A DNA stretch of 48,156 nt, filler included, from Sphacelaria rigidula (Eukaryota): the NCBI GenBank assembly GCA_964200075.2. It is 2 parts of 2 records of this genome, joined end to end, with 100 filler letters (N's around TTAATTAATTAA, not from the genome) between each part and the next. Parts side by side here need not be neighbours in the genome. Positions count along the whole stretch, not along the records: positions 1 to 24,032 come from CAXNAA020000229.1; 1 more part is not named here. One strand, given 5' to 3'. The position numbers and the translations under genes were made by a program. Below, in pieces: positions 1 through 24,132 of this stretch. The notes below the pieces were generated by a model. That model was not told the DNA's origin. It made no database searches and saw nothing but the letters and a program-made list of their open reading frames with translations. Each line of letters opens with the position of its first letter. The stretch's first letter is position 1.

Positions 1-695
1 CCCCAATTGCTCCGTCTCGAATGGGATGCGTGGTCAATGGTCAAATGACTAAGGCAAGCAGCAAATGAGTACGCCCCCCCCCCCACCCCCAACTGGCCTG
101 TGGCAGGCTCTTGTGCTCATGTCGGGTAAAATTATCGATGAATAACACCCCCCAAGTTCAAATTTGATCATCTGTTATTTTTGCCGCGCAGCGCACCGTC
201 CTTGCTGGCATGTGTGTGACAGAGAACAGTAGTAGCGGTGACGGGAACATTGCCCAGTTTTTCAGCGCACAGAAGCGCGGCCTGTCCAACAAGAGAGGCA
301 GAGAGAAATTGATCTTCGCATAAAGATACGAAATCTGTCCGCAGCTCGATGTGCTTTGGGGATGCCTACAGGCACATGAGAAATTCGGCACGTGCTGGTA
401 ACATGCATGATGCCAGTCTCTCGAGCGATTGGTAATCGCCCAGCGAGGGCACACGGACATGGGCGAGGAGCTTCCTCTCTGTCGTTGCTTCTCTCTCTGG
501 TGATATCGTCATCGGCACGCGTGTACACCGCAGTCGTTATGTGCATTTAGCCACAAATGATGATTCACAGTTGCGGAGTTTTGGGGGGAAAGATGGTTTC
601 GCTCTGTGTTACTGTTTCGCGTCGTCCCTGCAAAAAAGATATGCCAGTTGAACCTCATTTTCCAGATTAACCTCATTTTTCAGGATCCGCTGTTA
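1..695. repeat. Dispersed repeat ending GTTGAACCTCATTTT...GCTGTTA (family also at 24133-24197 and, inverted, 36221-36620)
   Basis: 150-320 aligns to the reverse complement of ~36360-36545 (GAGAACAGTAG..GGTGACGGGAACAT, AGAGAGGCAGAGAGAAAT). All three copies share the terminus GxATCxGCTGTTA. Confidence 0.7.
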
Positions 696-811
696 GTACC
701 AGTTTTCTCCCAGAGACCACTACAAACTCCCATCTGCCGTACTAACCTCGAGCGAACCCCGATCCCCGACCGCCGCCAACATACACTGCGGAAGACGCCC
801 ACGCCGTCGCT

Positions 812-1104
812 ATGGACACTCAGCAGCGACCGCCGAACACACTCGCGTACGCCTATTGCCATGGCTTCCTCAGCGGCCCCGGCTCCGTGAAAGGGCAGGA
901 GCTCCGCAAGAGCATGCTCGAGGGCGGCGTGGATATGACGTTATTGAACCTCAACGGCGCCGAAAACGATCCAGGTGCTATCACGTGCTCGGGGGCTGTG
1001 CAGGCTGTTCGAGATTTCCACCTCGAAAAGAAGGCCGCCGCTGGAGATCCCGAGCTGAAGCTCCGGCTCGTCGGGAGTAGTCTCGGGGGATATGTCGTGG
1101 CGAG
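812..1104 (+). CDS. Exon 1 of YqiA/YcfP (UPF0227)-like alpha/beta hydrolase-CYTH fusion gene
   Basis: ATG at 812. Translation has HGFLSGPGSVKG (oxyanion-hole region, cf. YqiA HGFxSSPxSxK) and the nucleophile elbow GSSLGGYV. Donor GAG|GTTTGT at 1104/1105, phase 2. Confidence 0.85.
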
Positions 1105-1507
1105 GTTTGTTCACGTTTGTGGTTCATGGTTTGCACATCGCGATCGCAGTGATAGTCGTGTTAGTGCTGCCGCGTTGCGTTGATTACATACTTTACGGTC
1201 GATATTCAGAGCCACCTTCTGCAGAAGCCAGAGCTTGCTGGTCTTGTCCATATATGATCCCCCAAAGTATGTTGTCAATTAAATTCTCTCCCTTCGCTAT
1301 ACACCTGTTTTCCTCCCTTCAGCTTTTGCTTTCGAGTTTTTTTGTTTCCGAAGCCTACCGCAGTAGCTGTCAAGCAATTATGAAAGTCGTGGTCATGGCC
1401 GGAAGTCAGGCAACCCTGGGGATTCAAGCAGCACCTGTTCAAAATGCTAGGCTGAGACGAATGTTAGGAATTACTTGCTCTTCTGGAATTACTATGAATG
1501 TGGCCAG

Positions 1508-1638
1508 GTACGCCGACTTGTACCCAGATGAGGTGGATCGCATCTTTATGCTTTGTCCTAGCTTTGGGCTAGCGACACGGGTTCCCAAAATCGCAAGCGA
1601 AGAAGACATGAAGTCATGGGAACGAGATGGGGCAAGAG
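1508..1638 (+). CDS. Exon 2 of hydrolase-CYTH fusion gene
   Basis: CAG| acceptor at 1507 and GAG|GTGAGA donor at 1638/1639. Phase-compatible with exon 1; reads (R)YADLYPDEVDRIFMLCPSFGLATRVPKIASEEDMKSWERDGAR, the helix-strand that follows the nucleophile. Confidence 0.85.
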
Positions 1639-2041
1639 GTGAGAGAGGAGCCGAGACCGCCATAGTACTAGCACTCTCATCCGTCTGGATAGCGCTGGGT
1701 AAATACTGCACGTGGGCATACACCCATCCATCTCAAGCGAATGGGTCATGCTTTGCCTCATTCGAATACACATCTAGATTGCATGTCTCCTTTGCCGTCT
1801 GCCATCATTTTGCTGTGCATCCCCACCCGAGCTGGGCTCACAAGGGCACAGCGCGACTGTGTGACATTGCGGGTGCAACGGGGCTCAAGAGTTTAGATGG
1901 CTTCGCAGTGCTGGGTACGTACAAGCGGCCAGTGTGAATGACATAACCAGTCGTACCTGACTCGTTCCCCTCGCTCCTCGGCTCGTGTCGGCTGTGACTA
2001 CAACTTTGCTTCCCCCCCATCCTCCGTCCGTGCGGATCCAG

Positions 2042-2207
2042 AATTCCCCTTGTCTACCGGTGGGATTGCAAGCGTCCCGTGGACGTTCGTACAAGACGCT
2101 TTATTACAGCCCGACTATCCTGAATATGTCTGTCCTGCTGCAATCGTGCACGGTCTGCAAGACGAGATTGTACCGGTGCAATCGACTAGGGCGCTTGTCG
2201 AAGGAAG
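2042..2207 (+). CDS. Exon 3 of hydrolase-CYTH fusion gene (catalytic Asp)
   Basis: Pyrimidine-rich acceptor ending CAG at 2041 and donor AAG|GTGAGT at 2207/2208. Reads (E)FPLSTGGIASVPWTFVQDALLQPDYPEYVCPAAIVHGLQDEIVPVQSTRALVEG, containing HGxxDxxVP. This frame is not in the supplied ORF track. Confidence 0.85.
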
Positions 2208-4278
2208 GTGAGTCTACGAGCGACAACGTGGTGTGCACTCTCGTTACCCCCCCAGCGGGCATAGACAAAGGTCATCACTTTTGCTCACGAGCGTGTTGGC
2301 TTCTCTCATGGAGTAGTAGTGTGATTAAGCTTGATTGTATCACACTGATGAAAAGAGATGCAACTTTTGACGACAGAGCATAGTGTGTATCGCTTGTCGC
2401 CATGTTTTGGATTGGTGAAGTAAGGTGGCCGACGGCCTGCTGCTCGGGGCAAGTACTTCGATGAAATATTCGAACCATCTTCCAACCACCAATGGGATGA
2501 TACGATTAGTGGTCAGCCAATCGGGCAGTATAGTCCACACCGTTCTGTGTGAACTACCTAGCAATTGTTAATAACCTGTGTCCCATTCGTTGCAGTGTTG
2601 CTCTGGGGTGTAGGGTGCCAGGATTGAGTGCACCACGAATTACTTTGCAGAGGACGTGGCCTTGTAAAAGCGCAGGAAATCAAAATTGCTGACATATGCA
2701 GCGCTAGGTTTGATGATGAACTGCCCGCCGCACACTGCACGGCACAGAGGACTAATGACATACCTAAAAACGTTGTTAGGAGCTCTCCGACCTAACACAC
2801 CCTCGGCCATCGCTCGTCTGTCGGCGACTGTACGCTCGCCGACTGAGTTTGGTTGCCCCAGGACACGCTGCGCGCGCAGACACTAGATCGTCGGTACAAC
2901 ACAATTTATGTGGCAGCGCTGGGTTGATCGCATGGTTTATAATTTTTGCGCATCAACTGATGTGCCACGAATCTAGTTGTGATAACAAATTGGGCTGACT
3001 AAAGGAAAATAGATCGAAATACTCGCTGAAAATTACCGAAAAAAAATCGAGAAAAAAGCGAGAATGGAACAGTGAAGAACAAACAAACAAAATCAATTTG
3101 CTGTAAAAGATGGACTAGGAAATAGTACCGGTTCCGAAATTACGCCCGAGAGCCCCCTGGCAGGGCTCAAGGTAGGGGGAGCGTACAAAAAGCAAGGCCA
3201 TGGGAGCAGATACTCTATCTGTAGATCGCACTACGAGGCAGAAATTCTCAACCGCCAGCTCTGCAGAAAGGAAGCCCAGGCCCTGACCTAGCAGGCTAAT
3301 AAAAAAGAAGGAGAAGGGTAATACAAAACAGAAATAAGGGACAGGAGGAAAAACAGTAGACGAGGAGAAGAAGGGAGAAATAAAAAAGGAGTTGAGTGGT
3401 CGTAATGTTGATTTCAGAATTGACGTTTCAAAAACGGTCTGTAGATCTGGGCCGTCAGCATTCCCTATTCCTTATGGCGTGTCACTGTACACCGCATGAT
3501 GCACAATGTGGACGATGTCGCTCGAAAAGCATTGCTTACTTGTCGATCGCAACGTATATCTACGCCCCGCCAAACATGAGCTTCCGCCACGATTTCTGGG
3601 CGCTAGAGCAAAACACGGCAGACGAGCGATGAAGCGGTACTCTGGTTACTTTATTTGCTATTGGCGGTTGTGGCCTGTGTCCAGGTTCAGTGGAGTATGA
3701 CCACGTGAAATCTAAAGTCATCTGTGTGTGTGTGTTTTTTTTTCTTCATTTTCGTACTCGTCCGCGTGTTTGATGAGTCCTGTGGTGACTGTTGTGGACC
3801 GTTTGCGCGGACCGTGGTTTGATGCATTGACACATGAGGCACCTGTTGTTTCCTGCTGACCATCCTTCGCCGCGTAACCAGATATGAACAGGAAAGCACG
3901 ACGTTGCCACTGCACATCCAGCGGCACAACCGCTTGGCTTTTATGATGTTGTACACGGTAGTGCTGATACAGTCTTCATTGGCATCCATACTTTCACTAA
4001 TTTCAGATTCTTACTAAAATGTAGCGATCACAGAGCGGTACAATGCGGTACAGTACAACACAGTGAGTGCAGTAGTGTGCTACTATAGTGCACAGCTCGG
4101 ATGGAGTCAGTGTAGGTCGTAGTTCCCACCTGTTGACGAGGTAACACCTCACCGCATAAGAGAATGTAACCTGCTGTAGATGGGACGACCTACCACGACA
4201 ATCTCAGAACACAAAATGAGCCCCGTTCTCCCTGTCCTGCCGACCGTGGATGGTGCACCGTACACGCGAAAACCGCAG

Positions 4279-4531
4279 CACTCGGTTGGCAAAGATAACA
4301 TCTGCCACACTCGTCGAAGACAACCATGCCCTGACTGCGCCGGCGACGTTGAGTCTCCTGATGAAGATGCTGGCTGAATTTTTCGAACTCGGGGGCAAAG
4401 CCGAAGCTATGTCAGCGTGCCAGGCACCAGAACGTGATGGGGAAGCGGGCACGCAAAAGCCAGGGCCTCCCGCGCGAGCAAACGTTGAGGTGGAAGGCAA
4501 ATTTTCAGCCGAAAACTTGGATCGGGTGAAG
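4279..4531 (+). CDS. Exon 4 of fusion gene: hydrolase His motif, linker and start of CYTH domain
   Basis: CGCAG| acceptor, phase 2 matching exon 3. Reads (S)TRLAKITSATLVEDNHAL...FFEL, a linker, then NVEVEGKF (CYTH ExExK motif). Donor AAG|GTGCAG at 4531/4532, phase 0. Confidence 0.8.
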
Positions 4532-5092
4532 GTGCAGAGCTGTCCAGTTTTGTGGTACAGAAATGTGGTCATTGAGTGTTCTTGATAGTATCTGACGGCT
4601 CCATATACGCGGGTTTGCGAACGTGGTTTCAGTGGCTTCGACGCTTAAGCAGGAAATGTCGACGCCATGCTTCTAGGACATCATGAATCACCTCAATGCA
4701 ACGGGGACCGACCCACCATTTCGATTCTCTAGTTTCCCGGCTTTCACGAACGACCACTTGGTCAAAATCCAGCCAGAAATGAGTTCTGTTGCGGTATTTG
4801 CGGATATTCGCATATCGTCTTCACTTTCTCCATTTCCAGTTGAAACTCGAGCGAGTGAAAACTCGGAAAGGCTTGGAGCCTGGAAATCGGAGAAGGGGGC
4901 CAGCCTCCTTGCAGTAAGATGATGCAGAGTGTTCATGACACGTGGCGGCGATATTAACTGTTTTCAGTCAAAAACGCTGTTGAATGTGTCAAACTGGGAA
5001 ACCTGAAGTAAACCCATATTCCATAAGAAGCGATCTGAGGTGGGCTCCGACGCCCACACCCCTGCCGATAATTAAACACATGTTCAATTCCA

Positions 5093-5390
5093 CCGCGCCC
5101 CGGTGGTGAACCGGTACATCTGACAGCCGGTTAGGGGGGAGGTTGAGGGTTCGGCTCATGACAGACACGGTGCTTTTCCTGAGGAATTGTGTGGTTTCAC
5201 TCGATGAAAGCGTGAAAACGTGAGTAGCAAGGGAAATTTGACCAGAGTCGACGCGGCGCGGGTCTGGTGGGTCTGGCCCAATCCGCGATACCGAAATGTC
5301 TGGTTTGTACAGGGTTAGAGGGGGGTTGATTCCTTGATACTGCGGATTCGTCTGGAGGAAGTGGAGGAGTAGAAAATATGACGAGAGAGA
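5093..5390 (+). mobile_element. tRNA-derived SINE, family 2
   Basis: Head CCGCGCCCCGGTGGTGAA...GGGTTCGGCTC. Body AACGTGAGTAGCAAGG...GTCGACGCGGCGCG is shared (inverted) with 46010-46308. Confidence 0.6.
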
Positions 5391-5608
5391 ACAAGGTTGT
5401 AGGATCTCGCCTTTGTGTCTCCTGCTCCGAGCTCAGCGTAAGATGTGGGCGTCTTGCTGCGCCTCCTCGAGCTCTTACCCGAGAGAAAAGAAGGTAATCG
5501 TCGTTGGCCTCGTCCTTATCTCCGAAGACGTGTGCCATGCCATAAGAGGTAACCCGTGTGTTCCATCCTTGTGCCTGACCCGGGGCTTTGTCCCATATCG
5601 CACGGCAG

Positions 5609-5743
5609 GACGCCATATCCGCACGCGGCGGTAAGCTCGTTGGAGAGCAGGTGTTCACCGACATTTACTGGGATGCACCACAATGCGGGTTGACAGAAAT
5701 GGACTGGTGGTTGCGTTGCCGCGCTGGTCGATGGGAGTTGAAG
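5609..5743 (+). CDS. Exon 5 of fusion gene: CYTH / thiamine-triphosphatase-like domain (partial)
   Basis: GGCAG| acceptor and AAG|GTGCGC donor, 45 codons, phase 0/0. Reads DAISARGGKLVGEQVFTDIYWDAPQCGLTEMDWWLRCRAGRWELK, resembling ThTPase FxDxYYD...WLRxR...WELK. Later exons not found. Confidence 0.8.
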
Positions 5744-6559
5744 GTGCGCTCAGGAGCAGTTTGTGAACCTTTTTTGGACCTTGTCTTCCCGCGACAGTTT
5801 GAGCGTACGTACGCATTGATGCTTGGTGTAGAGTGAAGGCAATTTGATGTCCCTCGGCTAAGACTGTGTTGCCGACGTCGGAACATGCATGTGCTTTGTT
5901 TTGTTCGGCAGCGCTATCTTGGCTACGCCGGCGATAACGTCTCGCTGCGTGGCGCAGCGAAGTGGGGTAGTCTTTGTTGGGTTTTGTCGCAGCGGTGATG
6001 TTCACTTTTTTCTCAAAAATAGTTCAATATTGTTAAGGGTGGGACTGGGGCCCGATTTTGGGTACTGTATTTCGGGAAAATGGATCACGAACGCTATATG
6101 CGTAAGAACTGGACCGTAATCAGGCGAATCATATCAATCCAAAATACATGCGTCACCTAGAAACAACGACCTGGCTCATATAAAATGTACCATAAATATG
6201 GTACATATCTTCAAGCCTGCGAGTGCTCGGTGTTGAGATTATATTGTTCCTCCGGATAACTCCCTCCAGATCAGTGTGTGGAAACTCTTGGTGCACCAGT
6301 GTTAAGCTGTTGTACTACTCGGGAAGCGCACGCCCCCGAGCTGCCACCTCACGTTTACCAACATTGCGAAGACAACAAGACAAGAGCACGAACAGCAGCA
6401 CTTGTGGCCGCCACACATCAACGCATCTGCAGTGAAAGACGTGCCTGACATCGTGCTAGAACGAGAAAGTACGGAAATTTGCATACCATGAGCAGCAGCG
6501 TTGCGCATCCCTTGGGTTCTGTCTCGAAAACGTCTGTGAGAAGACGGCCGTGTTTCATC

Positions 6560-7420
6560 GGTGAACTCGTCCTCGACAAGCCTAGGGTTGAAAGGGCATT
6601 CGCTCATGATAAGTGAGGTTGTCCTTTGTACACGTCCCCACAGAACTGAGCAGCACATGGCAGACCGCCACCAAAGCAAATGTTGTGACATTGGTGCCAA
6701 AAAATAGCATTTTGTCGAAGATGCAAGTTGGTGTAAATCGCATGGTTTACACATTATTTTCAGTATATACAGGCAGTCAGTTGAAACACCGTGGCTCTGC
6801 TGACCTGTTTATACATAGTCAGTGTGTAGTCTAAAATAATAATCGCCCTTGACGCCCTGGTTTCTCCGCTGGAACCCTCAGATCCAACAGTCGAAGTTCA
6901 TGTGTTACGTCGCCCTCTGCAACTCAATACATGAAGGGTACTCGCTGTTGAAAGGCTAATTTGCTCATTGTGCACAGCCGTACAGAACGAAGCAACACCT
7001 GGCGGCACGCCACAAAGTGGAACACCGTCACACACTGCTCGCTGCAAGAGAAAAATATGCAGCCCAAAACGAAGCTGTCGACCGTCGCATAGTTTGCATC
7101 TCACTCTCACATTAGTATAATATAAACAGACAATTACCATGTACATGATCACAACAGTCGCCAGCAGATGTAAGGCGGTGCAAGTACTACAATCGCTCTA
7201 GAAGCCTCGGCTTCTGCCCTGGAGCTCTGACACGAAGCAGCCGCTAGCTTTGTCTTTCTTCTGTGAACTCCCCCTCTGAAATTCGACACTTGAAGGGATA
7301 CTCGCTGTTGAAAGGCGAAATTGCCTTTTGTGCACAGCGGCACAGAACTAATCAGCAGCGCCTGCCGACACGCAACCAAACTGCATGTTGTGACAACTTG
7401 CGGCGAGAAAAAACAATATA
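6560..7420. repeat. Degenerate tandem array, three units with ~350-bp period
   Basis: Core AAGGG..TCGCT..TGA.A.G....TTG.....TGT.CAC......ACAGAAC recurs at ~6592, ~6934 and ~7292. Confidence 0.7.
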
Positions 7421-8933
7421 CGCACCGATCTTTTTCAATTTGCGATGTTGGACCTCTTATAGCGCTAGATACTAATCCTCAACCCAAAAGTGCCGATCGC
7501 GCAACGCGTAGAACTCGGCGACGAAGCAGAGGATTTGACTGCAGTTTCTTGCGTGCGCTTCCCACACACCCAAGCTAGGTCAATCTATTTTACTTTTTCG
7601 TTTGACCGTGATGCTGAGCCGCAACAAACCCAAACGTTCAGAAATGAGGTGTTTTGCGCTCTGGTAGGGGGGTTTCTCGCTGCTGGCGCGACGCCAGGAA
7701 AATGTGAAATAGAATCCCCTAGATCTTGTGTGTATGCGGGGGTGTGTGAAGTGCCGTGGGCTGGCTTGCTTCCTGTGTCGAGAACCGCGCGATCTCCCGT
7801 GCTAGAGCTGTCCCATAGTAAACCAAGTTTATAAGTGATGAAGCGTGCGTTCTGCTCGAGAGGGCCTCGGCACAGGTGTAACCACCTACTGACGTGTTCA
7901 TTATTCCTCCGCACTTCTGTTTTTGTTAGTTTGCCGCTGATTTTTGGTCGTTAGGCCCTCCAGTCCCACCCATAACAGTCGGTGTTGGATACCGGCTGTG
8001 TGCTAAAGCTAAGCGAAACTTCTGCGCGATCTATTTCATGGCATGAATGAAACGTTGTCAAACATTTTGCAATGGATTCCTCGTGCTCTGTAAACCACGT
8101 ACATTTATTTCGTGCTTCATTAGACCATGAGTGCGTACAGTAGCGCAGGAGGTTCCTGCGGTTGATATCAGCAAATATACAAAACGTGGCCGCCTAGGCG
8201 AAGATCGAACCTGAAGTGAAATCGAGTGGAATTCTAAGGCTGTTCTTCTTGCACGCTATCGGACTTCAACCGAAGTGTTTGGCTGGCGAGGTTTATATAG
8301 GCCTACCAAGAGTTTGTAGTGGAACGCTCATTCTCCAGGGTGCGTGCGTTCTCTTCGGAACGTAAGGAGCGATGCATTTCGAGACAAGCTCGCAACATCG
8401 TGACCTGGTCCGCGCGAGGGGATCAGTAGACACCAAAGCGTCCACAAACTTCGCCTCCCCTCACTCCGCACCACATTGTTTTCTCCGAAGCTTAGGTTAC
8501 ACTTCGTTCCCCACATGTGTGACATATTTCAGTCATTCTCACGATTGGCTATACTCGCTGCGTGCTGTATTTTCACCCTGACGAATGGCGGTCAAGTGTG
8601 TAGCGTACAGCTTGATATCCGAAATGTTCTTCATGGGCTACTAGATATGAAGAAGTTTTCACCGGTATGAAAGAAAAATTACGGCGAAACACGGGCAAAT
8701 GTGACAACGCCGTCGAGTCTTGGAAAGTATCAGTAGTGTAGGTGGCGATGGCCGCTAGTTTGGCAGTCCGGGCGCTTCAGAGATTTTCTTTCGCGCGGTG
8801 GTTTTGCACGATATTATTGCGGCCTCACATGGTCGACAGGGTTGGTTGGGGATACGAAGTTCGCCGCTGCGGTTCCATGCGTGTTTCGCGTGTGTTCACG
8901 TGTGTTTGTCTAGCTCAACTGACTGTTGAGAAT

Positions 8934-9022
8934 GTGTTGTGTGTTTTCATCCCATCTATTCTGCACGCCAGTCTACCCCTTTCGGTATATGTGGGCGCAT
9001 CAGCCGGGGTCACACAAGAAGC
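8934..9022 (-). mobile_element. 3' fragment of SINE family 1
   Basis: TCCCATCTATT...GTATATGTGGGCGCATCAGCCGGGGTC matches 38054-38115 and the reverse complement of 41240-41315. Confidence 0.75.
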
Positions 9023-10089
9023 AAATTTCCGCCATACTCCGGCCCGAAATCAAGACACGGACCCAACCACATCCGCACGTGCCGCCTGATTCGTATGTCG
9101 CCCACCAAGTGTGCCACGCCCTTCAGCTGTTGAGCAACAAACAGCCCAGTCGTGTGTCTTGAGCGCAGTATGTACCGCGGCCGGCCCGATCACAGCTACT
9201 GTAGCGAACTGTTGAAAATTGTATCATGGCAACGGCACTGCCCCCGGCTTTTGCACAAATGACTGTACTGTGACGCGCCCATGTGTCTGACAACAGCCTT
9301 TTCTCTGCAGGCGTTGCCTTTCCACCGAAAATAGCTATCGTGAACCCTCGGGTAGTAGGTAGGAAGAGAAGGAGCTAGTTGATCATCGGGCGCTACAAGA
9401 CTTATCCCCTTGGCCACCAGCTTCGTCTTGGAGCAGTATCGCTGCTGACAGTTCAGGGGTTTCCGTGGGGCACGGGACGGAGGGTGGCTTCGGGTTCCCA
9501 GATCGTCGAACAAAGCTCTTCAGGTCAACCACATATCTTTTGAGGATTCGTCTAAGTCAGGCAATTGGCTTGAACGGAGCTGTATGATGATTTCGATAGT
9601 TTCGATCAGTCCAATGATCCATAATTTTCTCTCCAAATCGCAAAAATGTTTCCACTTGGCGGTCAATCTGTAAAATCTGTAGTTGATCATCACTGCAACC
9701 GTCCCAGGAAGAAATCACAATAAAAAGAAGGGATATTTGTTTCTGGTTGCGCCGCGACTTTCGATCTAATTGTTTCCTCTGGTGGCGAGGAGGAAGCTGT
9801 ACACCGTTCTTATACAAGAACTGAGCTAAGATGGAAGCGACGTAGACTCCCTGCAGTGGAGCGATGACACACAAATTGGTTCATGCTGTTGCACTTTTCC
9901 GTTCATGAAAAGAAGTTGCATGCGTGGTTCATGAACAGTTTAGTGGAGGAGACTTGGGACGATGCGAGGTGGTATCCGAAATATGCTCGGTGTGTGTCAG
10001 TACTGCCCCGGAAGTATCCAGGTTGCAAACGCGTAGGCAGAGAGTCTGTGTATATCCCGGTAGGACTGGTGGCTAGGGTATGCCACCTT

Positions 10090-10700
10090 TTTTTTTCTTC
10101 GTTACACTTTCAATCCCTCTTTTTGGTGGGGACGAGTCCGTGGTCTGGAGGGATCAATCCACCTCCCACGCCTTACATTTTGGTATTGCAGGTTGGATCT
10201 GCACTCCCGCACCGCGTTGATTTTCGGCGAACAAACTATCTTCGCTATTGTAGTCTTAACCTTCCTAACGACGGAAATCAGACACTAAAAAACCCCCCAA
10301 ATGCGTCTGCCGAGGTTCGAACATTCATTCTTCGTTCAGGACTGGTTCCAGGTGTGTCAGTTAGCCCACCGCGGTGCGTTTTTTCTTTCCTTTACTTCTT
10401 ACCCCCCACGTTTCTCGGGACATATCCGTGGTCTCAAGGGATCCATTTTTCATTCATCTCTCCCGGTACACGCTTTGATATTTGGTGTCGTGGAGTGGAT
10501 CAGCACTCCCACCCCGCGTGAAGCGTAGTCTAGCAAATTCAGTGAGGTAGACCTTTTTTGTCACACATGCTCTCGCGATTCCAACGACGAAAATTGAAAA
10601 CTCCTGAGAAAAAAGTCAAACTAGATTTATCTCGTGGGAATCGAACCCGCGCTTTTCCCCCTATAATGCTGCGAGTTGTAGTACTTCACCACCGAATAGC
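10090..10700 (-). mobile_element. Two adjacent SINE family 2 copies (~10090-10375 and ~10385-10700)
   Basis: Two tRNA-like heads on the minus strand (B boxes GGTTCGATTCC at ~10637-10648 and GTTCGAACCTC-like at ~10310-10325). Body GAGTGCTGATC...CCACGACA is shared with 46120-46150, and TCCGTGGTCT..AGGGATC occurs twice. Confidence 0.55.
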
Positions 10701-12807
10701 TCAGGGAACACGCGCGTACTCTTGTCTTGGCTCAAAACCGATCAGTGGTTCTTCTGCACGCCTTTCCATCCGTACTGATGTTCAACACCCGTGTGCTTGT
10801 GTAAAAAGGCGTACTGTGGTACTCTAAAACGGTAGTTCCGAAATCCAAACTGGCCATGGGCATTTTTGGGCGATCTGCGCTGGGGCTGCGGCCGGGGGTT
10901 GACCCTGCATTTCAAACCCTCGGACCGTTGGGTTGGACGCTGAACGAGCATACTCTCTCGGGGGGTCTGAGTTGATTTTTGAGAGGCACTGCCTTCATAG
11001 AAAAAGTTGCTGCCACGCATATGATTCCCGCCAAAACAGTTCGTGCTCAACCTGCGGCCACTACAGTATTGCCGTCCCAGCGCAGCAGCAGAAGCGAACT
11101 TCGCGCCAGCCGTTGTCGAGGCCATGCCTGTATCAAGATATCAGCAGACACAGCCGAATGATCCATGAAGACACACACACGCACACACACACATCGTGGG
11201 CCTTCCTCTTTCAACAATGGCAACGGCTGCTGCGTGTCTACCGCCTTTTTCGTATTTTGCAACATTCCTGCCAAGCGACCATATCCACTTAGCGTCCATC
11301 TACGCCGGAATGAACCATTGCCCAAAATCTCGTGGGACTCTCAGCGAACAAGATTATATGGTTGAAAGAGTGGAGGCTTGAAGCGCTAGCCTATGCACTC
11401 ACATGAACAGTGTTTCAACGTCCGTTGGTTGGGATCAGCAGTAGCCATTATAGCGTCACCGGTACTCATATCATTGGAACGCTCCCTCTCGAAATCGACC
11501 CTTCATGTGTAAGATAATGGGCCACATCGGTGTATATGTGTACTTGTTCGTAGTCTATGATTTGCGCCTCGTAGATTCTAGGTTGGGTTGAGTAAAAAAA
11601 TCAAGGGAATAGGCCGAAGCCACCCCCATTGGGCAATCACAACGCTTTCTTCCCACGCTCACACATGATCAATGAGTTTTCCGTTTTTCTTAGAGGATAG
11701 GGTTGGGCTTGCCATTTTGATTGGTTTTCCACCAGTCAGCACCTTCAAGTCATAAAAAGCTGTGTGGTCGTTGTGAGACCTAGTTCACGTAGAGCTTGGG
11801 AGCCAAGTCACTCGACGAAGCATTTGACAAAATATCAAACCCTGGCTTTTCTGTGACCGCATGGTTGGCGTTATTCTGTTCCACTCTATTCCTCGAACGA
11901 ATGAGAACGATGAACACCAAAGATACAGCCTCATACACTGTAAATACTGCAACAACCATCGCATTCGAGTGTGTGATAAACCCCTGCCTGGCTGCTACCG
12001 AAAGACAGGCATAAAACATGCAGGACGTGGTTATGGTTCCACAAACGCAACGGTTCACATTCCGAAGATGACTTTTATCAGGGCATTACCCTAGGACCCT
12101 GTTTCCTCCTATGGGGTCGTCAACTGTGACTTCGCTGTGCTGGTTGCGCCGGAAATCTCCAGCAAGATCAGCAGAATCGCCGCTCACCAGACCAGTTGAA
12201 TTCATGCTTCGAATGTCAGCGGCACAGCTTGTCCAACAGCCAATGTTACGACCAGGACTTCAAAAACGCCTGTCACACTCGATAGGTGCACAGCACGTAT
12301 GGATGAATAGCCAAGACGACAAGTAGGGTGTCTGCGATAAATTTTGTGCTTGCGGGAGGCAGCCAAGTATTTGACGAAAGCAGCTTTTTCGGCACTTGTT
12401 TTCTGGCTGTGCTGTTGACGTAGAAGCAGTAACACCGCAGCTGCTTTGTGATCGAGGCTATTGCACAATCAGTGTACACACGGGTCGACGACACTGCGCC
12501 AACAGCGCGAGTTCGTGGCCGGCTCGGTCGAAGGTGAAACTCAGTCGCGACGCCAGTGTGGGCACAGCGCGGCAATACTGTCTGTGCACAACAACACATG
12601 GAGTGCATAGTGATGCGAATAGGCACCGCAAGTATACTGTAAGCGCCGCCGTTGTTGATGATCATATATATAACCGTGCTTGAATATTCATGGGTTGACC
12701 GGTAATCCAGATTTTGATAAAGCGATAGCTAAATGATGCTATTGTCCACGTATATTTTAATGTGTCATGCTGACGATGACGGCACTTCCCGACGCTATCA
12801 TGAGCAG

Positions 12808-13037
12808 GTGCCACAGTGGTAAGCGTGAGCCGCAGCGGCTCGAAGCCGACAAAGTGGGCGGATGGACAAAGCTGGGTCGAGCGTGTGTCGTGGACGAAAG
12901 GCGACCCTTCAACGATGGACCTTAGCAGTGTCTTCTCAGGTGCCACAGCGGTAATATCTTGCGTGGGTGTGATCGGAGGTAGCGACGAGGACATGGAGAA
13001 AGGAAACGGCGATGTCAATGTAGCGGCGGCTGCGCAG
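12808..13037 (+). CDS. Internal exon of atypical SDR / NAD(P)-binding Rossmann protein (At1g32220-like)
   Basis: GCAG| acceptor and CAG|GTGGGT donor. Reads (G)ATVVSVSRSG...WVERVSWTKGD...AVISCVGVIGGSDEDMEKGNGDVNVAAAAQ, typical of the extended/atypical SDR N-terminal half. Confidence 0.85.
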
Positions 13038-13639
13038 GTGGGTACGTACTGTTAGTATGACGATTGCTGCTCCCTGTCACTAAATGAAGTGGCATGAGTA
13101 ATGTTCCGTGCTATTTTTGTTTACTCTCCTTCCTTGTTTCTTCAATCACCATTGCCAACTTGATGGTCAGCACATGAAACGTGGAGGAAGATTGACGACT
13201 ATGATACTCTTTTTGACCCGGGTGGGCTGAGCGTGGCGGACCTGTGCCGTTGTATATATGTTGTAGTTTGCAGTCAAATGCAGGTATTCGTCGAATTTCA
13301 CTTTTGGGAAGGGTCAACAAGTAGTGCTACTGGCATCATCAGTGTATCCGTGATCGCTGCAGGGGGGCGTGGTAAATACATTGAGTTGCGTACACATCAA
13401 GGTGGCATGTGTAGGCTAATTCCAGTTTTTTTTGTAGTAGTAGTAGTCTTTGTCGTTTCAGCAATTATTATTGTTTGAATTTGAAGATGATTCGAGTGTA
13501 GCGTCATGTGAGGTTTGTACATCGGGAGCGAAGCTTACAGTATTCACCGCCGAGATAATTGAATCGATCAGATGAACAAGAGTATCATCCCGCACAGTAG
13601 GATATTTGGCAGGAAAGTGATGATATCATGTTTTGATAG

Positions 13640-14590
13640 ATCGCGGGAGCCCTGCCTAGACAACCGACGAACGACTTCCGAAGCGACTGGCATTCGAAAC
13701 AGTCCTGGGGTGTAGTCATAAGACCATTGAACCAGTCCTGGGGGGGGGGGATCCAGGACCAGGGTGCCCGGAGCAAAACTGGCTGGAGTGTCTGAGAGAC
13801 GATCTCCAAGCTTTAGGAGCCACGAACCGCTTTACGGACGACAATATTCTGAGTTGAAAATGTCCTCTGGCCCCCAGCAGCGAAGAAGGAAGGAGGGACA
13901 CTGGGGCACGCGGGGGTGCTGCAGGGAGCGGAGAGATTTGTGTTCTCGTGGCACAAGAACGAGGACGAGGCCAGTCAAATACTTGCGATTAAACGGAATC
14001 TTCGAGGAGGGCAGGAAGTAGATGGAAGAACGTGTAGCCAGCTTGTACCGAAACTGTACATGGCGGAGGTGGCAGGACTCGTCATCATCTCTTCATGTCT
14101 TTTTCTTCCCTACTAACTGTTGCCTTCCATGTACCCCTCCCCCGAGGTGGATTGTTGATATGTGGTGCTTTTCTTGTTATGGCTAGCATATTCGTACACA
14201 CGGCTGTCCCTCTAGAGGTACAAGGATAGAACCCTGTGATTCTTGTCGCTGTGGTTGGTGTTCTTGGTTTCTGAGTTCGGCTCCATTTCTGTTTGGCCTC
14301 GCGTACTGAGCTGACAATTGGGCCCTGCCTCCAGTAGATCGAGTGGTCGCATACGGCGCCGGAACTTCTGAGGTTGTCAGTATTTTCACTCTTCTTTCTG
14401 TTTATTTTTTGTATCGCGTCTGTGTGAATTTTTGTGGGTCCGATTTTATTTTTCGATTTCCTTATACTGTACCTTGTTTGGGTGGTTAGCCTGTGACCAC
14501 TCCACCTTAGATGCCCTGTACAGAGTACTGCGTAGATATCGAAATGTTTTTTCTGTGTGAAGACAGCAACAATAACAAGACAAACAAACC
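13640..14590 (+). mobile_element. 3' remnant of RTE-like non-LTR retrotransposon (LINE)
   Basis: Frameshifted translation AGALPRQ/DERLPKRLAFE...WLECLRDDL matches the RTE ORF2 C-terminal pattern (RLPK...W.d.i..DL). Followed by a long 3' UTR ending TGTGAAGAC and a degenerate CAA-rich tail. Confidence 0.7.
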
Positions 14591-15140
14591 ATCGCGATAT
14601 CGGAAGAAGGTAGGCAGCTGCCAGTACAGAGCAGTAAGCAGGCATTACGAATATTCCAGTTTTACAGAGGAGCAGGCAATTTTGTTCATTCCGTCGCTAT
14701 TCGCGCGATACTGTGCACCTCTTCTCTTTCCGTTTTGGCGGTGGAGCTAAGCTGCTTCGCTAGACGTGCGACAAGCGATTTTCGACTTGTTGCTGGCGAG
14801 GATACTTGATCAACCATCTCGGTCACCCATGGTCAGTTTTCGGTGATGAAGTGCCATGCTCGGGCACCTGTATCTCCATGAGCCCGAGCCTTTGCGGGGC
14901 GTGGTATCCCATCACTTGCTGGATAACAACTGAGAGGAGGATGTCATTTTCCGGATATCACCCCTCCTCCCCCCCCAAAAAAAAACGAGAAGAAAATGAA
15001 GAAACACACCGGTTTTCAACTTTCGGGGTCTTGGGGTGTTGGAAAAAGTGCATGAGTTTCCTTGCTTGTAATACAAAACCAAAACTGGCATGCACGTCCT
15101 ACAGTCAATGCCGCTAATATTCTAATTACGCTCTCCTTTC

Positions 15141-15141
15141 G

Positions 15142-15220
<79 letters not shown>
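15141..15220. repeat. (GTT)n microsatellite, about 27 units
   Basis: Perfect trinucleotide run forming the 3' tail of the minus-strand LINE. Confidence 0.98.
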
Positions 15221-15880
15221 CTTCACATGAAAGACCGTTCCGATATTTGGGTATCACTCTGTACTGGGTATCTGATGCGGACGCCTTCCGTGGCCACAGG
15301 CTAACTACCCCAAGTTAGGGTAAAAGAGAAATTATAAATTAAAGCCGGACGCAGAAACAATTCACACAGACGCGATACGAAATAAAAAAATGAAATAAAA
15401 AAAGTACGAGGAAAGAAGAAAAAGAGGAAGGAAAAAGGAATACTGCTAGCCCTCTAAGTTCCGTTGCCGTGTGCGACCATTCGGGCTAGTGGAGGCACGG
15501 CTCATTGGTCCGCTCAACACGCGAGGTGAAGCACGACGGGAGCCAAACTCGAGAGCCACGATCACCGGCCAAAGCGATACGAGTCGTACGGTCCCATCCT
15601 TGTACCTCTTGGACCGACTATGCGTAGGAATGTACTAGGCATAACAGGAAAAGTACTACATGGTAACAGGCACCACCTCGGGGGGGAGGAGTGCATAGGA
15701 GTCATCAGTTCGTAGGAAAAAGAATACAGGGATGGATGTTGGGGGGTCCTTGCCCCTTCCGCCATGTTGAGTTCGGTACAAGCTTGCTACGCGCTCTTCC
15801 ATCTCCTCCCTCCTGTCTTGAAAGCTCCAGTTTAATCGCACGTAGTCGGCTGGCCTCTTCCTCGATCTTGTTGAATTGAA
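15141..15880 (-). mobile_element. Second copy of the same LINE 3' end, inverted, with (CAA)n tail
   Basis: Reverse complement aligns with ~13960-14575 (e.g. GCGATTAAAC, AGCTTGTACCGAA, CCCCCGAGGTGG, TATCGCGTCTGTGTGAAT, TGTGAAGAC) and ends in the microsatellite. Confidence 0.8.
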
Positions 15881-17049
15881 TTATTCTGTGCCCGAATTTT
15901 CCCTGTAGCGATCAGGTCGACTCTCCGCTCGCTTGCGCGTGGTTAGTTGGAGAGCATGTATGTTCTGCCCAGCCAGTGTTTCTGTTTCCTCGCTCACCTC
16001 GCTTTCCTGCCTGTCGTGCTGCTATGGATCTTCCGGGAAACATGAACGAACCCATCAGTATACGCAACTTTCTTGAATCCCGTACAAAGAAGGAAATTCC
16101 TTACGAGTACGCTTTTTCTCGTTCGATTGGGTAATAATGTACAGTGTGTGCATTTGCGCAAAGCCTTCTCCACCTGAAGCCATGCTGCAGAGGCTGACCA
16201 TTTTTGTTTTGTTTTGTCCATGTTTCGTTCGTTCGTCTATTTGTTTTCTCGCTTGTTTGGTTGTTTTTCAGTCTACTCTGTTTGCTTCACCTTTCTGTTT
16301 TGTTCACTTTCCTTCAGCTAATGTCCCCGTTTTGTTTCATCTCGGGTACTCTACTTGCATCATGTGAATGATGACCACGACTGGATCATGACTCCTGGGG
16401 GAGCAGTGAATGTGCGACAATCAACCAATCAAATCGATCAATCAATCGATCGAACATGCATGTGTGTGCTGCCCGAGCAAGGGAATACGTTTACACATCG
16501 GACGAGTCACTTTTCATTGGACGCAGGTCATACAGCTTGAGTGTGAATACACCTGTGTACCCGATTCGAATGATACAGTGCAACTAGTTATGGAACGGTC
16601 CTCGTGTTCCGGGTATCATCGATCAGGAGGGAGGTATCTTCTACGAGTTACATGAAAACACAGATCCTTCTTGACGTTTCGTATACACCTGATTTGGATT
16701 ACATAGATGTGCCCAAGGAAGTGATGTACGGATAAATAGAGTTTACAAATCACTCGTGGCAGGTTCGTACGGATACTCGGGTCATACAGATCATCAGACA
16801 TATATGTACGAATCATACGGGTCATACAGGTCAGTCATCACGCCATTTGTGCAGAGCAACCGGGTTAGATAGGTCACCACGCGAGAAATGTGTGTATATA
16901 TTGAACAGGTGATACGGATATAGATCAATTTCAGATCGCAAAGGTCATACGCCTGATCGTCGAGCAGGCTTGTGGGACATAACCTTGCTTCATCGCCGGC
17001 AATGTACATGTCGATGACTCCTCTCGGGAAATTTTCGTCCGATGTTGGC

Positions 17050-19897
17050 CGAACAAATTTTCGTCCGCCTAGCTGAGCCCGATGAACCTGCGGTTTACCC
17101 TTTTCGACGGTTTTCAACGCCGGTGTATGCCCTCGACCGTCAGGGTCCAAAAACTGGTATGCACATGGGAGGACCTCACCCTCCACCGTATGACGTCGTC
17201 TTGGGTGGGTTAAAGCCCACAACCTCCGATTTTGTCGATTTCTGCACTTTTGGTCCTCGCGCGAATTTTTTCACGTCGCCACCTTCGGTTATCCACCAAA
17301 TATCCGACAACACTCGCTCTCGGCCTGCCGCCGCACTACCCCCCCGAGTGCCCCGTCGCCACCGATAACACCTACAAGTTCCACGAGCCGCGCAGCACCG
17401 ACCTCACAAACCCGCACGCAACGCTCCGCCACGACTACTAGCGCGCAACACACGCCGCGGACAATCTTCGCCGCGCACTGCCACAACACCGCCGTCAATA
17501 ACGGCGCCACCAACACCTACCCCTCCCGAGCACGGCGTGGACAACTCGGCTCCTGCTCCCGAGGCAGATACTGACGTCGGCATTTCTGCCCCGTCGCCTA
17601 TTTCCCCGCTGCCTACCCCACCATGTTTGGTCGGCTATCCAGAGGAAGGCCAACAGCGCGAGTTTCTCGCCAGCTACTCCCACCGCGATTGGGCTCGCGA
17701 ACAAAACGTCGAACCTTTATGCCGCGCAGCTATTCGGTACTTACAGCTTGACTGTCCAGTCCCTTTTCCACCCGCCCTTCTGGCCCCGGTTGGCACACTG
17801 CTACCACCAGATATCTCTGAGGTATCCAAACTCGTGCGTAAAGGCACTATTTTCACTACGGATGATGGCGTACAACTACTCGTACGTCGCCCCACGCCTT
17901 TGACGGGCGAACTTTCCGTCTCGACCACGGGACGCCACGTACGTCTACTCGATGGCAAACCAATACGCATATATGTTCCATTATTCATGCGCCCCTGGGT
18001 CATGAAAGGCTGCCACACAGACTTGTCGTGTCACCTTGGCGTCACTCGCACCCCAGCGCTCCTTGAACGCTTATACTGGTGGGATGGCATGGAAACCTCC
18101 CCTCACCTCTGGATTCGGCGACAGTACGTTGGCCCGTCATTTCTATGGGACTCCCAAACGCCCCGGGCCACCCTGTGTCTTTTGACTACTTCGGCCCTCT
18201 ACCGACCACAGGTCGCGGTAACACCTACATCTTACTCTTCACTGACCGCTTCAGCCGCCACGCGTCCATGTACGCAGTAACCGCTGGGGATTTCACTGCC
18301 GTCGGAACGGCCGATATGTTGGTCTACGACTACATGAAGCACTACGGTTGTCCGACGTCGGAACGGCCGATGCGTTGGTTTACGACTACATTAAGCACTA
18401 CAGTTGTCCGAAACGACTCCTTTCAGACATTGGTCAACGATTTTGCTCAGGTCTCTCTGATAAGCTTTACAAGCTCCTGGGCATCCGCAAGATTGCCACG
18501 AGCACCCACGACCCGAATGGTAACGGTGGTACCGAGAGGGTTTACCACGCCATGGCCCAGATACTGTCTATGGTCGTCAATGACCACCAAAATGACTGGG
18601 ACCTACTTTTCTCGCACATCATGTTGCCCTTCAGCAACTCGGTTAACGCCGCCATAGTTCTTTCCCCGAACGAACTCTATCTTGAACGTTACCCTCGGCT
18701 GCCCATCACCGTGTTTGAGCGACACACGTTCGATGGCCACCAAGGATTGGATTAGGATCAGATATCCTATCACGAACTAGCACTTTCACGACAGCGCAAA
18801 GCGTTCACCCTCGTGCGCGAACAACACGCTATCAACGTCTCACGCCTTGAGAGATCTGACACTGCCCTCTACAACCTCATGCACAAACGATCCATCAGGA
18901 AAGTTGCTAATTGGGTTTGGATCTACAACAGCTTGTCGACCATCCGTCAAGGCACCAGCAAGGCGGCCAACGAAATAGTTTTCAAGACGAAAATGTCTCT
19001 CAATTGGACAGGACCATTCAAGATCCTGACAGTCGGACCATCGCCATTATCAACGGATGATAAACCCGTTGGTGACAAACGGCTCTATTTCGATCTGCCT
19101 CGCGACCCTCAGGGCAAAGACACCAAACCCCGCGTCTCCGTGCACAGGTGTAAACCCTGCACGAACCCGCATGATACAAGCGACATGCCCAAGTACCCAC
19201 CTGCCGGACTCACACAGTACGTTCTCAACAGCTACTCGACCAAGTTCCTGCCCTATCACGTTACAACCGACGACGTGACGAAACAGCCCCTCCGATTGAC
19301 CGTGTCCACCGTCTCCAGTCACCAGATTACTTGTGGTCGAGGTGGCAAAAATGCTGTCATGTGTAAGACCCACTGGCAAGGTCTTCGGAGAGCGTCTTGG
19401 GAACGCGAATCCGACCTTCAATTGCACCGCCGTGCGATCCTCCTGTACTGGACACCATCCCAAGATCAGCATCTTGCTCAAAACAAGAAATATCGCAACA
19501 TGCGTCGTGGTGCAGCAGCCCGCGAACTTCACCGCGATCGAGGACTACGCTTTGCCGACGATGGCTACGAACTTGTACTCACCAAGACTTGTGAGGCAAG
19601 TTCTTCGCAAACCAGCGAATACTACCCAAGGGCACCTACCTGTGCTTCAAAGGCAGTGACAACCTCTGGTGGTTGGGCCAGACCCACTCCGCTAACCTCG
19701 TTTCTGCCGACAAATACATCGTGCGCTTCCTCGATGACCCTGGACCCATAGGGCTCAAGGTCCGGCTAGCACTATGCACCACCAGCCCATCTGCACCACG
19801 CGGATCGTGGTGCCTTCAGCGATTCAAACCCAAAAGACCTCGCCGCGGCATTCAGCGCAACATCGACCACACCCACAATGTCCACGCACCGCTTTGA
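17050..19897 (+). pseudogene. pol: 5'-truncated Gypsy pol (RH-IN linker, integrase, chromodomain, Tudor-like tail)
   Basis: IYVPLFMRPWVMKGCH..CHLGV, FDYFGPLP, LFTDRFSR, LLSDIG, GNGGTER, WTGPF, then VSSHQ...KTHWQGLRRASWERESDL. Collinear with the minus-strand element, frameshifted, and located inside the SDR intron. Confidence 0.92.
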
Positions 19898-20684
19898 ACC
19901 ACGTCCTTCACTGCCACGTTTCTTCCCTATATATTATTTTCCCCTCCCCTTTTCGCTATTAATAGGGCCAGCCTTTACGAAATCCACGAAAAGACCACCT
20001 ACACCGGACCACGATCGGATACTGTAAGGAGTCGCTCATCATCTACGAATACTGGAGCTCTAGTACCCTCCTTTTGGCTGGCGCTGGATCTCATTGGATT
20101 TCCGATTTTCTGATCTTGTTTCTTCTTGCTTCCGACCAACATGCGTTGGTCGCATGTCACTGATTTTGTCGTTTTCCCTTTGGAATCCCCCAGGTAGAAG
20201 CTCTGCCCCCTGTTGTACCTTCCTGGTTTCCCCCTTCGTTTTGCTAGGACGCCGAAGCAATTTGTGCTCCTTCTTTGGTGGCTAGCACGCGGAAGCAGTT
20301 TGTCCTCCCGCCTTTTGAAGCACTTTTTTCTGCTCCTCGAAGCAGAAGATGCCTCCCTTATTTTTGAGGTGTGGGAGTGGGCCTCCACATGATTATTATA
20401 TTCGTCACATTAGCCCGATCTACAGCACCCGTAGTCACAAGAGTGCAAGGAGCATATCACCCATACCCCCACGTATCGAACAGCCCGCAGAGGAAGGCAA
20501 GAAACGAAACATCTACACGAAAGAGGGCACCCACACTACGAAAAAAGGCACCCGCACCTTGTCGCCTCCTTGGGCGTGCTTTATTAGCCGCTCACGACTT
20601 GACGAGTAAAGGAAAACCTTAGTTTTCGCTGCTTTTGAGGATGCATCCTCGCAGCTGTAATAATGGTTCGTCTATATGGGATAG

Positions 20685-24032: not shown

Positions 24033-24132
24033 NNNNNNNNNNNNNNNNNNNNNNNNNNNNNNNNNNNNNNNNNNNNTTAATTAATTAANNNNNNNNNNNN
24101 NNNNNNNNNNNNNNNNNNNNNNNNNNNNNNNN
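24033..24132. other. Assembly spacer: 44 N + TTAATTAATTAA + 44 N
   Basis: Symmetric 100-bp block whose 12-mer places stop codons in all six frames, typical of an artificial scaffold linker. Confidence 0.95.

Follow-up and report, generated by a model that had tools for sequence, protein, structure and literature searches.

The window analyzed here is a 48,156-nucleotide (nt) stretch of the Sphacelaria rigidula genome (GCA_964200075.2), composed of parts of two records joined by 100 filler letters, with positions 1 to 24,032 coming from CAXNAA020000229.1. The first 6 kb carry, on the plus strand, part of a gene that joins an alpha/beta hydrolase to a CYTH domain. An initial annotation, made from the DNA alone, had proposed five exons splicing to 326 codons and had read the product as a YqiA/YcfP-like esterase fused to a thiamine-triphosphatase-like CYTH domain. 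We reproduced the five exons (812-1104, 1508-1638, 2042-2207, 4279-4531, and 5609-5743) as 978 nt, or 326 stop-free codons, and inspection of the sequence showed that all introns are of the GT..AG type. For splice evidence, we placed contigs from four public runs (X5 to X8, from two studies) on window positions 1 to 20000; the RNA label of these runs is a guess, and we rely on their spliced contigs. The joints 1638/2042, 2207/4279, and 4531/5609 were each spliced in all four runs, and 1104/1508 was spliced in three, with the first 18 letters of exon 2 present as a loose end in the fourth. Contig depth was ∼380 to 510 on the spliced forms versus 2 to 11 on intron contigs, a pattern such as RNA gives. 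The features of the gene are as follows.

1-794, plus strand: 3′ part of an upstream intron, with the preceding exon outside the window (foreign letters before 794 in all four runs)
795-1104, plus strand: exon 1, extended at its 5′ end, with the HGF oxyanion region and the nucleophile elbow GSSLGG (RNA contigs from 794)
1105-1507, plus strand: intron of 403 nt (GT..AG joint, three of four runs)
1508-1638, plus strand: exon with strand beta6 and the first part of the cap insertion (joints on both sides)
1639-2041, plus strand: intron of 403 nt (GT..AG joint, four of four runs)
2042-2207, plus strand: exon with the remainder of the cap and, in HGLQDEIVP, the Asp of the triad (joints; tblastn E = 2.7e-27)
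2208-4278, plus strand: intron of 2071 nt (GT..AG joint, four of four runs)
4279-4531, plus strand: exon with the triad His (EDNH), a variable linker, and the CYTH ExExK motif (EVEGK) (single frame, 4220-4585)
4532-5608, plus strand: intron of 1077 nt (GT..AG joint, four of four runs)
5609-5743, plus strand: exon with the equivalents of Tyr39 (FTDIYWD), Trp53-Arg55-Arg57 (WWLRCR), and Lys65 (WELK) (alignment of a homologue, P0001, to 3tvl)
5744-6097, plus strand: start of the next intron, with its end and later exons outside the window (unspliced contig 5714-6097)

All internal exon boundaries of the initial annotation and its donor at 5743 were upheld, and its first exon was found to begin at 795 rather than at 812. 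This exon follows an acceptor AG at 793-794 and ends at the donor GAG/gtttgt. Contigs of all four runs continue upstream of 794, for up to 605 nt (X7 record 13), into sequence with no match anywhere in the window by short-sequence search. Translated in frame, the final 30 of these foreign letters give M-S-Q-F-A-M-S-R-L-N, after which come D-A-H-A-V-A and the Met at 812. Because the exon begins at 795 and the frame is open upstream, ATG 812 is probably internal, with the true start in an exon to the left of the window. At the 3′ end of the model, each of the four runs carries 27 letters past 5743 that read R-P-A-G-D-G-G-Q-G, where P0001 has MPAGDGGQE (seven of nine residues identical), a match that identifies 5743 as a true donor. 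The 326-codon model is thus the middle of the gene only, consisting of five internal exons: the window codes for the whole hydrolase domain and the linker and yet for only 63 of ∼203 CYTH profile positions (3 to 65), and the other two thirds of that domain, ∼170 codons, lie outside it. In homologues, this missing part contains the motifs R-x-K, D-x-D, E-x-E, and K-G-K-L.

The fusion itself does not depend on any of the splices, as the His motif of the hydrolase (EDNH) and EVEGKF of the CYTH domain lie in one exon, within a single uninterrupted frame (4220-4585), as had been claimed. Contig cover of this exon is gapless over 4277-4529, and transcripts neither splice out nor stop before EVEGKF, running instead through exon 5 into the next exon. 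That two neighboring genes had been misread as one was considered and ruled out, since both motifs share one exon and the spliced contigs. The motifs named in the initial annotation for the hydrolase (GSSLGG, HGLQDEIVP, and EDNH) and for the CYTH domain (EVEGKF, FTDIYWD, WWLRCR, and WELK, the last three in exon 5) were all found in the spliced product. By tblastn, P0001, which comes from a transcript-like contig and is 76.5% identical to the window's product, matches all five exons (E = 7e-46 to 1.6e-17; 7e-46 for exon 1 and 1.2e-22, with 89% identity, for exon 2). The product retains all 66 columns that are invariant among 10 homologues. Profiles built from free-standing proteins score it at 228.6 bits (hydrolases) and 72.7 bits (THTPA-like CYTH proteins), and none of 200 shuffles reached 2 bits. 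We regard the fusion as real and expressed with near certainty.

To gather homologues, we used an exon-1 search, a second search, and then a ten-protein profile run against 1.84 billion representatives, which gave 3771 matches at E ≤ 0.001. The exon-1 search returned proteins of 507 to 526 residues from Scytosiphon, Ectocarpus, Discosporangium, and Chrysoparadoxa that carry both a Pfam CYTH and an alpha/beta-hydrolase domain, and the second search added Undaria, Laminaria, and two sequences of eukprot source. Further fused proteins came from Vitrella brassicaformis (UniRef A0A0G4EN47), from Chromera velia (A0A0G4GR45), from a Euglena longa transcript, and from metagenomes. In all, both domains were present in 20 of the 158 proteins gathered, 18 of them with >70% of each domain and the remaining two (P0024 and P0027) with 62 to 67% of the CYTH part. 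The architecture, which the initial annotation did not know from elsewhere, therefore exists in brown algae and beyond; two of the 20 proteins are in UniRef, and all 20 are unnamed or automatically named in public databases. Among the papers listed by full-text literature searches, none was on a CYTH-alpha/beta-hydrolase fusion, and the CYTH partners named in PMC8233210 are an HD hydrolase, an exopolyphosphatase, a nucleotide kinase, and CHAD, with alpha/beta hydrolase not among them. Both domain families are known; their pairing is a new CYTH architecture, found in public proteins under automatic names.

Two side observations concern the extent of such proteins. Metagenome proteins P0014 (884 amino acids) and P0019 (1351 amino acids) have a C-terminal SET domain after the hydrolase-CYTH part, representing either a three-domain form or merged gene models. 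The two halves are annotated separately in Phaeothamnion confervicola, as the "partial" hydrolase and CYTH products P0028 and P0064, on contigs both given as 3490 nt; they are probably one fused gene split by annotation.

Each domain also occurs alone: the THTPA-like CYTH domain in one haptophyte, one chlorarachniophyte, and one pelagophyte and the hydrolase in Bryopsis and Creolimax. A CYTH tree of 78 rows left the depth unresolved, with 37 of 74 branches open. When the 20 fused proteins and 4 fragments were constrained to one clade, the approximately unbiased test gave a P value of 0.83, the constrained tree being 29 log-likelihood units better. As the clade was chosen after the tree was seen, this result says only that a single origin of the fusion stays compatible with the tree.

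We then considered what kind of CYTH domain the gene encodes. With the Pfam CYTH model (PF01928), exon 5 alone scored 15.1 bits (cutoff, 23.2; E = 0.022) and exon 4 gave no match. The full-length homologues were over the cutoff in four of four cases and in 9 of 10 in a second set; Chromera P0027 had no Pfam CYTH match at an E value of 1e-4. The thiamine-triphosphatase-like assignment of the initial annotation could be made more specific: a Protein Data Bank (PDB) profile search matched solved thiamine triphosphatases (ThTPases) at E values of 4.5e-26 to 2.8e-25, with the next CYTH structures at 0.009. An AlphaFold2 model of P0001 (predicted local distance difference test score [pLDDT], 79.2; predicted template modeling [TM] score, 0.80; linker residues 247 to 270 with pLDDT <50) agreed with this placement. 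Foldseek aligned the model to 5a64_A, mouse ThTPase with thiamine triphosphate (ThTP), at an E value of 1.5e-17 and a TM score of 0.88; among the matches listed, other triphosphate tunnel metalloenzymes (TTMs) from archaea and bacteria and class IV cyclases had E values of ∼1e-9 and TM scores of 0.64 to 0.74. VIA-align superposed the P0001 model on mouse ThTPase with a Z score of 24.9 and a root mean square deviation of 2.0 over 201 residues at 30% identity. A tunnel-forming beta-barrel of eight strands, with a plug helix at the C terminus, was present in the model, which is that of the homologue and not of the window fragment.

The residues point in the same direction. EVEGK corresponds to residues 267 to 271 of the spliced product, and E-x-E-x-K occurs in 19 of the 20 fused proteins, the remaining one having a gene-model gap. 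In the alignment to human ThTPase (3tvl), the Tyr of FTD(I/V)YWD corresponds to Tyr39, the second Trp of WWLRCR to Trp53 (followed by Arg55 and Arg57), and the Lys of WELK to Lys65. Equivalents of E7, Y39, R55, R57, and K65 are present in all 20 fused proteins and that of W53 in 19 (one has Phe); Trp also occupies position 53 in all 56 free-standing relatives examined. W-x-R-x-R with Trp53 is described as the ThTPase signature (PMC8233210); Trp53 stacks on the thiazolium ring, and Tyr39 and Lys65 are described as the catalytic dyad (PMC8615392). By sequence and predicted fold, we assign the C-terminal domain to the THTPA-type CYTH subfamily.

Compared with THTPA itself (5A64, 5A65, 3TVL, 3BHD, and 2JMU), the algal domain belongs to the same subfamily by sequence and fold and shares ExExK, Tyr39, Trp53-x-Arg-x-Arg, Lys65, DxD, ExE, and the Lys of the C-terminal helix. 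However, THTPA is a free-standing cytosolic protein of ∼220 to 230 residues, whereas the algal domain follows an esterase and makes up the C-terminal half of a ∼500-residue protein, and some fused orthologues have an N-terminal extension that THTPA lacks. Precedents for a CYTH domain joined to a second module are Arabidopsis TTM1/2 (uridine-kinase-like plus CYTH) and Escherichia coli YgiF (CYTH-CHAD), which differ from the algal fusion in partner domain and in domain order. The residue of TTM1/2 at the W53 position is aromatic (PMC8233210), as in the fused proteins.

The hydrolase half carries the complete Ser-Asp-His triad proposed initially, and the triad is invariant in all 20 fused proteins. 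Among 57 free-standing hydrolase relatives, Ser and Asp are kept in all 57 and His is kept in 53, with gaps in the other 4. The G-x-S-x-G elbow (GSSLG), HGLQD, and DNH in the window are as expected of alpha/beta hydrolases, and the triad residues come after beta5, beta7, and beta8 (strands 93 to 99, 184 to 189, and 214 to 219 of the P0001 model). The description of this domain as YqiA/YcfP-like held in part. In its favor, exon 1 of the window matches Pfam UPF0227 (PF05728) at 26.1 bits against a cutoff of 21, and fused homologues, at 27 to 43 bits, are over the cutoff in four of four and in 9 of 10 cases, with mostly partial coverage of the profile; scores for the generic models Hydrolase_4 and Abhydrolase_1 are about as high or higher. 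hhalign gave 95.6% to YqiA, over 75 columns only, and 1.2% to YcfP, so that the YcfP part of the description fell away. The NCBIfam YqiA equivalog matched one of three proteins, at 22.2 bits where 252 are needed. The nearest clusters in the ESM Atlas are bacterial UPF0227 proteins of 211 to 243 residues, whose scores of 0.82 to 0.83 are under 0.9 and serve as leads only.

With YqiA/UPF0227 proteins, the algal domain shares the N-terminal HGF-x-S-x(4)-S-x-K and the elbow GSSLGGY, but the match covers mainly the first 75 to 110 residues, and the algal domain is ∼45 residues longer, with a cap between beta6 and beta7. The best solved relative by sequence is ABHD10 (6NY9; E = 7e-11 in the PDB profile search). 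By fold, the best of the matches listed are feruloyl esterases and monoacylglycerol-lipase-type enzymes, which together with ABHD10 have Z scores of 20 to 23 over ∼215 residues; the YqiA-related structures 4FLE and 9BI7 were not among the best 50 matches of either structure comparison. ABHD10, the bacterial cinnamoyl/feruloyl esterases, and the monoacylglycerol-lipase-type enzymes (3PF8, 7WWH, and 7Q4J) have the same triad order and a small cap but are not fused to CYTH. As identity to these enzymes is 17 to 22%, substrate specificity is not transferable from them. Taken by sequence and model, the hydrolase half appears to be a small capped serine esterase or thioesterase that is weakly UPF0227/YqiA-like, at the fringe of that family, and not YcfP-like.

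The reading we prefer, with a probability of roughly 0.6, is that of a two-headed hydrolase, predicted from sequences and models to combine a phosphatase for ThTP or a similar organic triphosphate with a serine esterase. A nuclear gene of a brown-alga-type stramenopile would give rise to a protein of ∼500 residues in which two domains are catalytic. Its first 240 residues would form a capped alpha/beta hydrolase with Ser in GSSLGG, Asp in HGxxDxxVP, and His in D(D/N)H, most likely cleaving a carboxylic ester or thioester. After a predicted disordered linker of ∼25 residues, the CYTH triphosphate tunnel domain would bind metal through the glutamates of ExExK and ExE and phosphate through Arg and Lys and would remove the terminal phosphate of ThTP or a similar organic triphosphate by a two-metal mechanism. 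Both heads might then serve one pathway or compartment. Both domains are probably catalytic; that ThTP is the physiological substrate is a more tentative proposal, to which we give slightly less than an even chance.

Several points weigh against this reading. For the THTPA orthologues of fish and pig, almost no ThTPase activity is reported (PMC8615392), which means that membership in the THTPA subfamily is no guarantee of substrate, and plant TTM1/2 prefer pyrophosphate despite the aromatic residue at the W53 position (PMC8233210). The window fragment covers just those 63 CYTH positions, and the C-terminal two thirds of the domain are known solely from homologues that are 35 to 77% identical. 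Moreover, nothing links the esterase chemically to thiamine.

In an alternative reading, the CYTH domain would act generally on inorganic tripolyphosphate or on short-chain polyphosphate, which is presumed to be the ancestral activity of TTMs; it would have no specificity for thiamine, and the esterase would be an unrelated passenger. The majority of characterized non-animal CYTH enzymes have tripolyphosphatase activity (PMC8615392 and PMC8233210), and every phosphate- and metal-binding residue that it needs is present. However, in sequence and fold the domain is far nearer to ThTPases than to any solved tripolyphosphatase, and the Trp53 found in 19 of 20 fused and 56 of 56 free-standing proteins contrasts with the small residues at this position in the TTM clusters described in PMC8233210. 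We consider a general tripolyphosphatase unlikely, at about one chance in four in our estimation.

A second alternative concerns the locus rather than the enzyme: repeats or a misjoin may have broken the gene after exon 5 and left in the window a truncated remnant or a chimera of the assembly, so that the assembled locus could not encode the CYTH domain. None of the ∼170 C-terminal codons was found in the 42 kb downstream or on the other strand: P0001 residues 339 to 507 had no tblastn match on either strand of the window, nor did the last ∼170 residues of six full-length homologues across the 48 kb (best downstream plus-strand E value, 2.5), and the 27 letters past 5743 had none in the window with up to three mismatches allowed. 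An assembly problem is plausible because multi-copy sequence with many variant contigs begins just past 6.1 kb, retroelement fragments follow further on, and a second plus-strand gene (exon 12807-13038) likewise lacks its upstream exon in the window, which also contains three N runs (24033-24076, 24089-24132, and 34929-34938; 98 N's in all). In contrast, transcripts contain the five exons without extra letters and continue from 5743 into a next exon that matches the homologue, indicating expression from an intact gene that has exactly these exons, and a very long intron or a scaffolding error accounts for the data equally well. A broken copy seems improbable to us, and the rest of the gene may lie beyond a very long intron, in an N gap, or on a misjoined piece.

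It is more doubtful still that one of the domains is noncatalytic and serves for binding, regulation, or scaffolding, as does Jhc1, a ciliary pseudoenzyme derived from THTPA that illustrates such reuse of a THTPA-like fold in vertebrates (bioRxiv 10.64898/2026.02.04.703868). Jhc1 has lost ExExK and the catalytic Lys, whereas the fused proteins keep all catalytic residues across brown algae, chromerids, and euglenids. Finally, we rejected a CyaB-type class IV adenylyl cyclase on motifs, despite the source label of P0016 ("adenylate cyclase class IV") and a subthreshold NCBIfam cyaB match (23.7 versus 57.95 bits), as the HF motif four residues before ExExK is absent in 20 of 20 proteins (the window has PPARANV before EVEGK), the second Glu of ExE, which is Ala in the cyclases, is Glu in 18 of 20 (2 gaps), and the central Arg of WxRxR is kept (criteria from PMC8233210).

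ThTP is found in nearly all organisms, and its role is unsettled. According to a review, no ThTPase is reported in plants and ThTP breakdown there is unknown, though ThTP appears in light (PMC9544542); its synthesis has been tied to plastid and mitochondrial ATP synthases, and ThTPase activity is to date attributed to animals (PMC8615392). As ThTP breakdown in plants is unexplained, a conserved THTPA-type domain in photosynthetic protists is a candidate for the missing enzyme. By a crude charge and hydropathy count, four proteins of the brown-alga lineage (P0002, P0004, P0005, and P0006) have basic N-terminal extensions of 40 to 52 residues; in the euglenid-type P0020, the extension is 140 residues long and includes two hydrophobic stretches, and in Euglena longa P0021 it is basic and 39 residues long. 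These extensions are hints of possible organelle targeting.

The fusion could be imagined as a thiamine-cofactor housekeeping enzyme of algal organelles, with the THTPA-like head clearing the ThTP formed as a by-product by the ATP synthases of plastids and mitochondria and the UPF0227-like head cleaving an acyl or ester derivative of the pathway, a long shot in our estimation. If true, it would be the first ThTPase outside animals and would give orphan YqiA/UPF0227 esterases their first physiological role, and it would fit the thiK-ycfP neighborhood of E. coli as well as the targeting-like extensions in the four brown-alga-lineage and two euglenid-type proteins. The initial annotation had also proposed a Rosetta-stone link from UPF0227 esterases to thiamine or nucleotide polyphosphate metabolism. 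The E. coli gene contexts that it cited (hinT-ycfL-lpoB-thiK-nagZ-ycfP and nudF-yqiB-cpdA-yqiA) are correct, but they concern YcfP, to which there is no match, and YqiA, to which the match is weak, and the link is therefore a fair hypothesis and not a result. Fusion to a UPF0227-like esterase offers a testable clue to what a large orphan family of hydrolases, bacterial as well as eukaryotic, might do. Should the CYTH domain be an ordinary tripolyphosphatase, the finding reduces to a new domain architecture.

The remainder of the window contains one further gene fragment and several repeats. An internal exon of the second gene lies at 12807-13038 on the plus strand, with AG/GT borders, in contigs of 1816 to 2630 nt from all four runs. 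The 30 transcript letters that precede it had no match in the window by short-sequence search, and its translation contains SGATAVISCVGVIGGSDEDMEKGNGD, which by eye looks NAD(P) binding. Right after the unique part of the intron that follows exon 5, the region 6100-8000 is a multi-copy repeat, either transcribed or from contaminating DNA: it is covered by many contigs differing at ∼1 to 5% of letters and, especially at 6594-7400, holds three diverged copies of a ∼350-bp unit spaced 342 and 360 apart. Scans for tRNAs and Rfam families found neither in the window.

Two open frames are retrotransposon fragments, one at 17369-18280 on the plus strand with an integrase zinc-binding H2C2 domain (E = 1.8e-6) and one at 27760-28542 on the minus strand with a reverse-transcriptase RNase H domain (E = 1.7e-6); 13 other long frames of the window had no Pfam match. 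The region 13953-15871 may be a foldback or terminal-inverted-repeat-type element, with inverted arms at 13953-14052/15772-15871 (80%) and 14214-14384/15439-15609 (73%) and a perfect (GTT)27 microsatellite at 15141-15220 inside them. At 1-667 and 8672-9338, summed contig depth reached ∼40,000 and ∼5,000 to 10,000, respectively, and odd joints led from a C run near 75-90 to 8978, 10197, 10425, and 16326. The probable cause is either low-complexity k-mer tangles or short matches to abundant transcripts.

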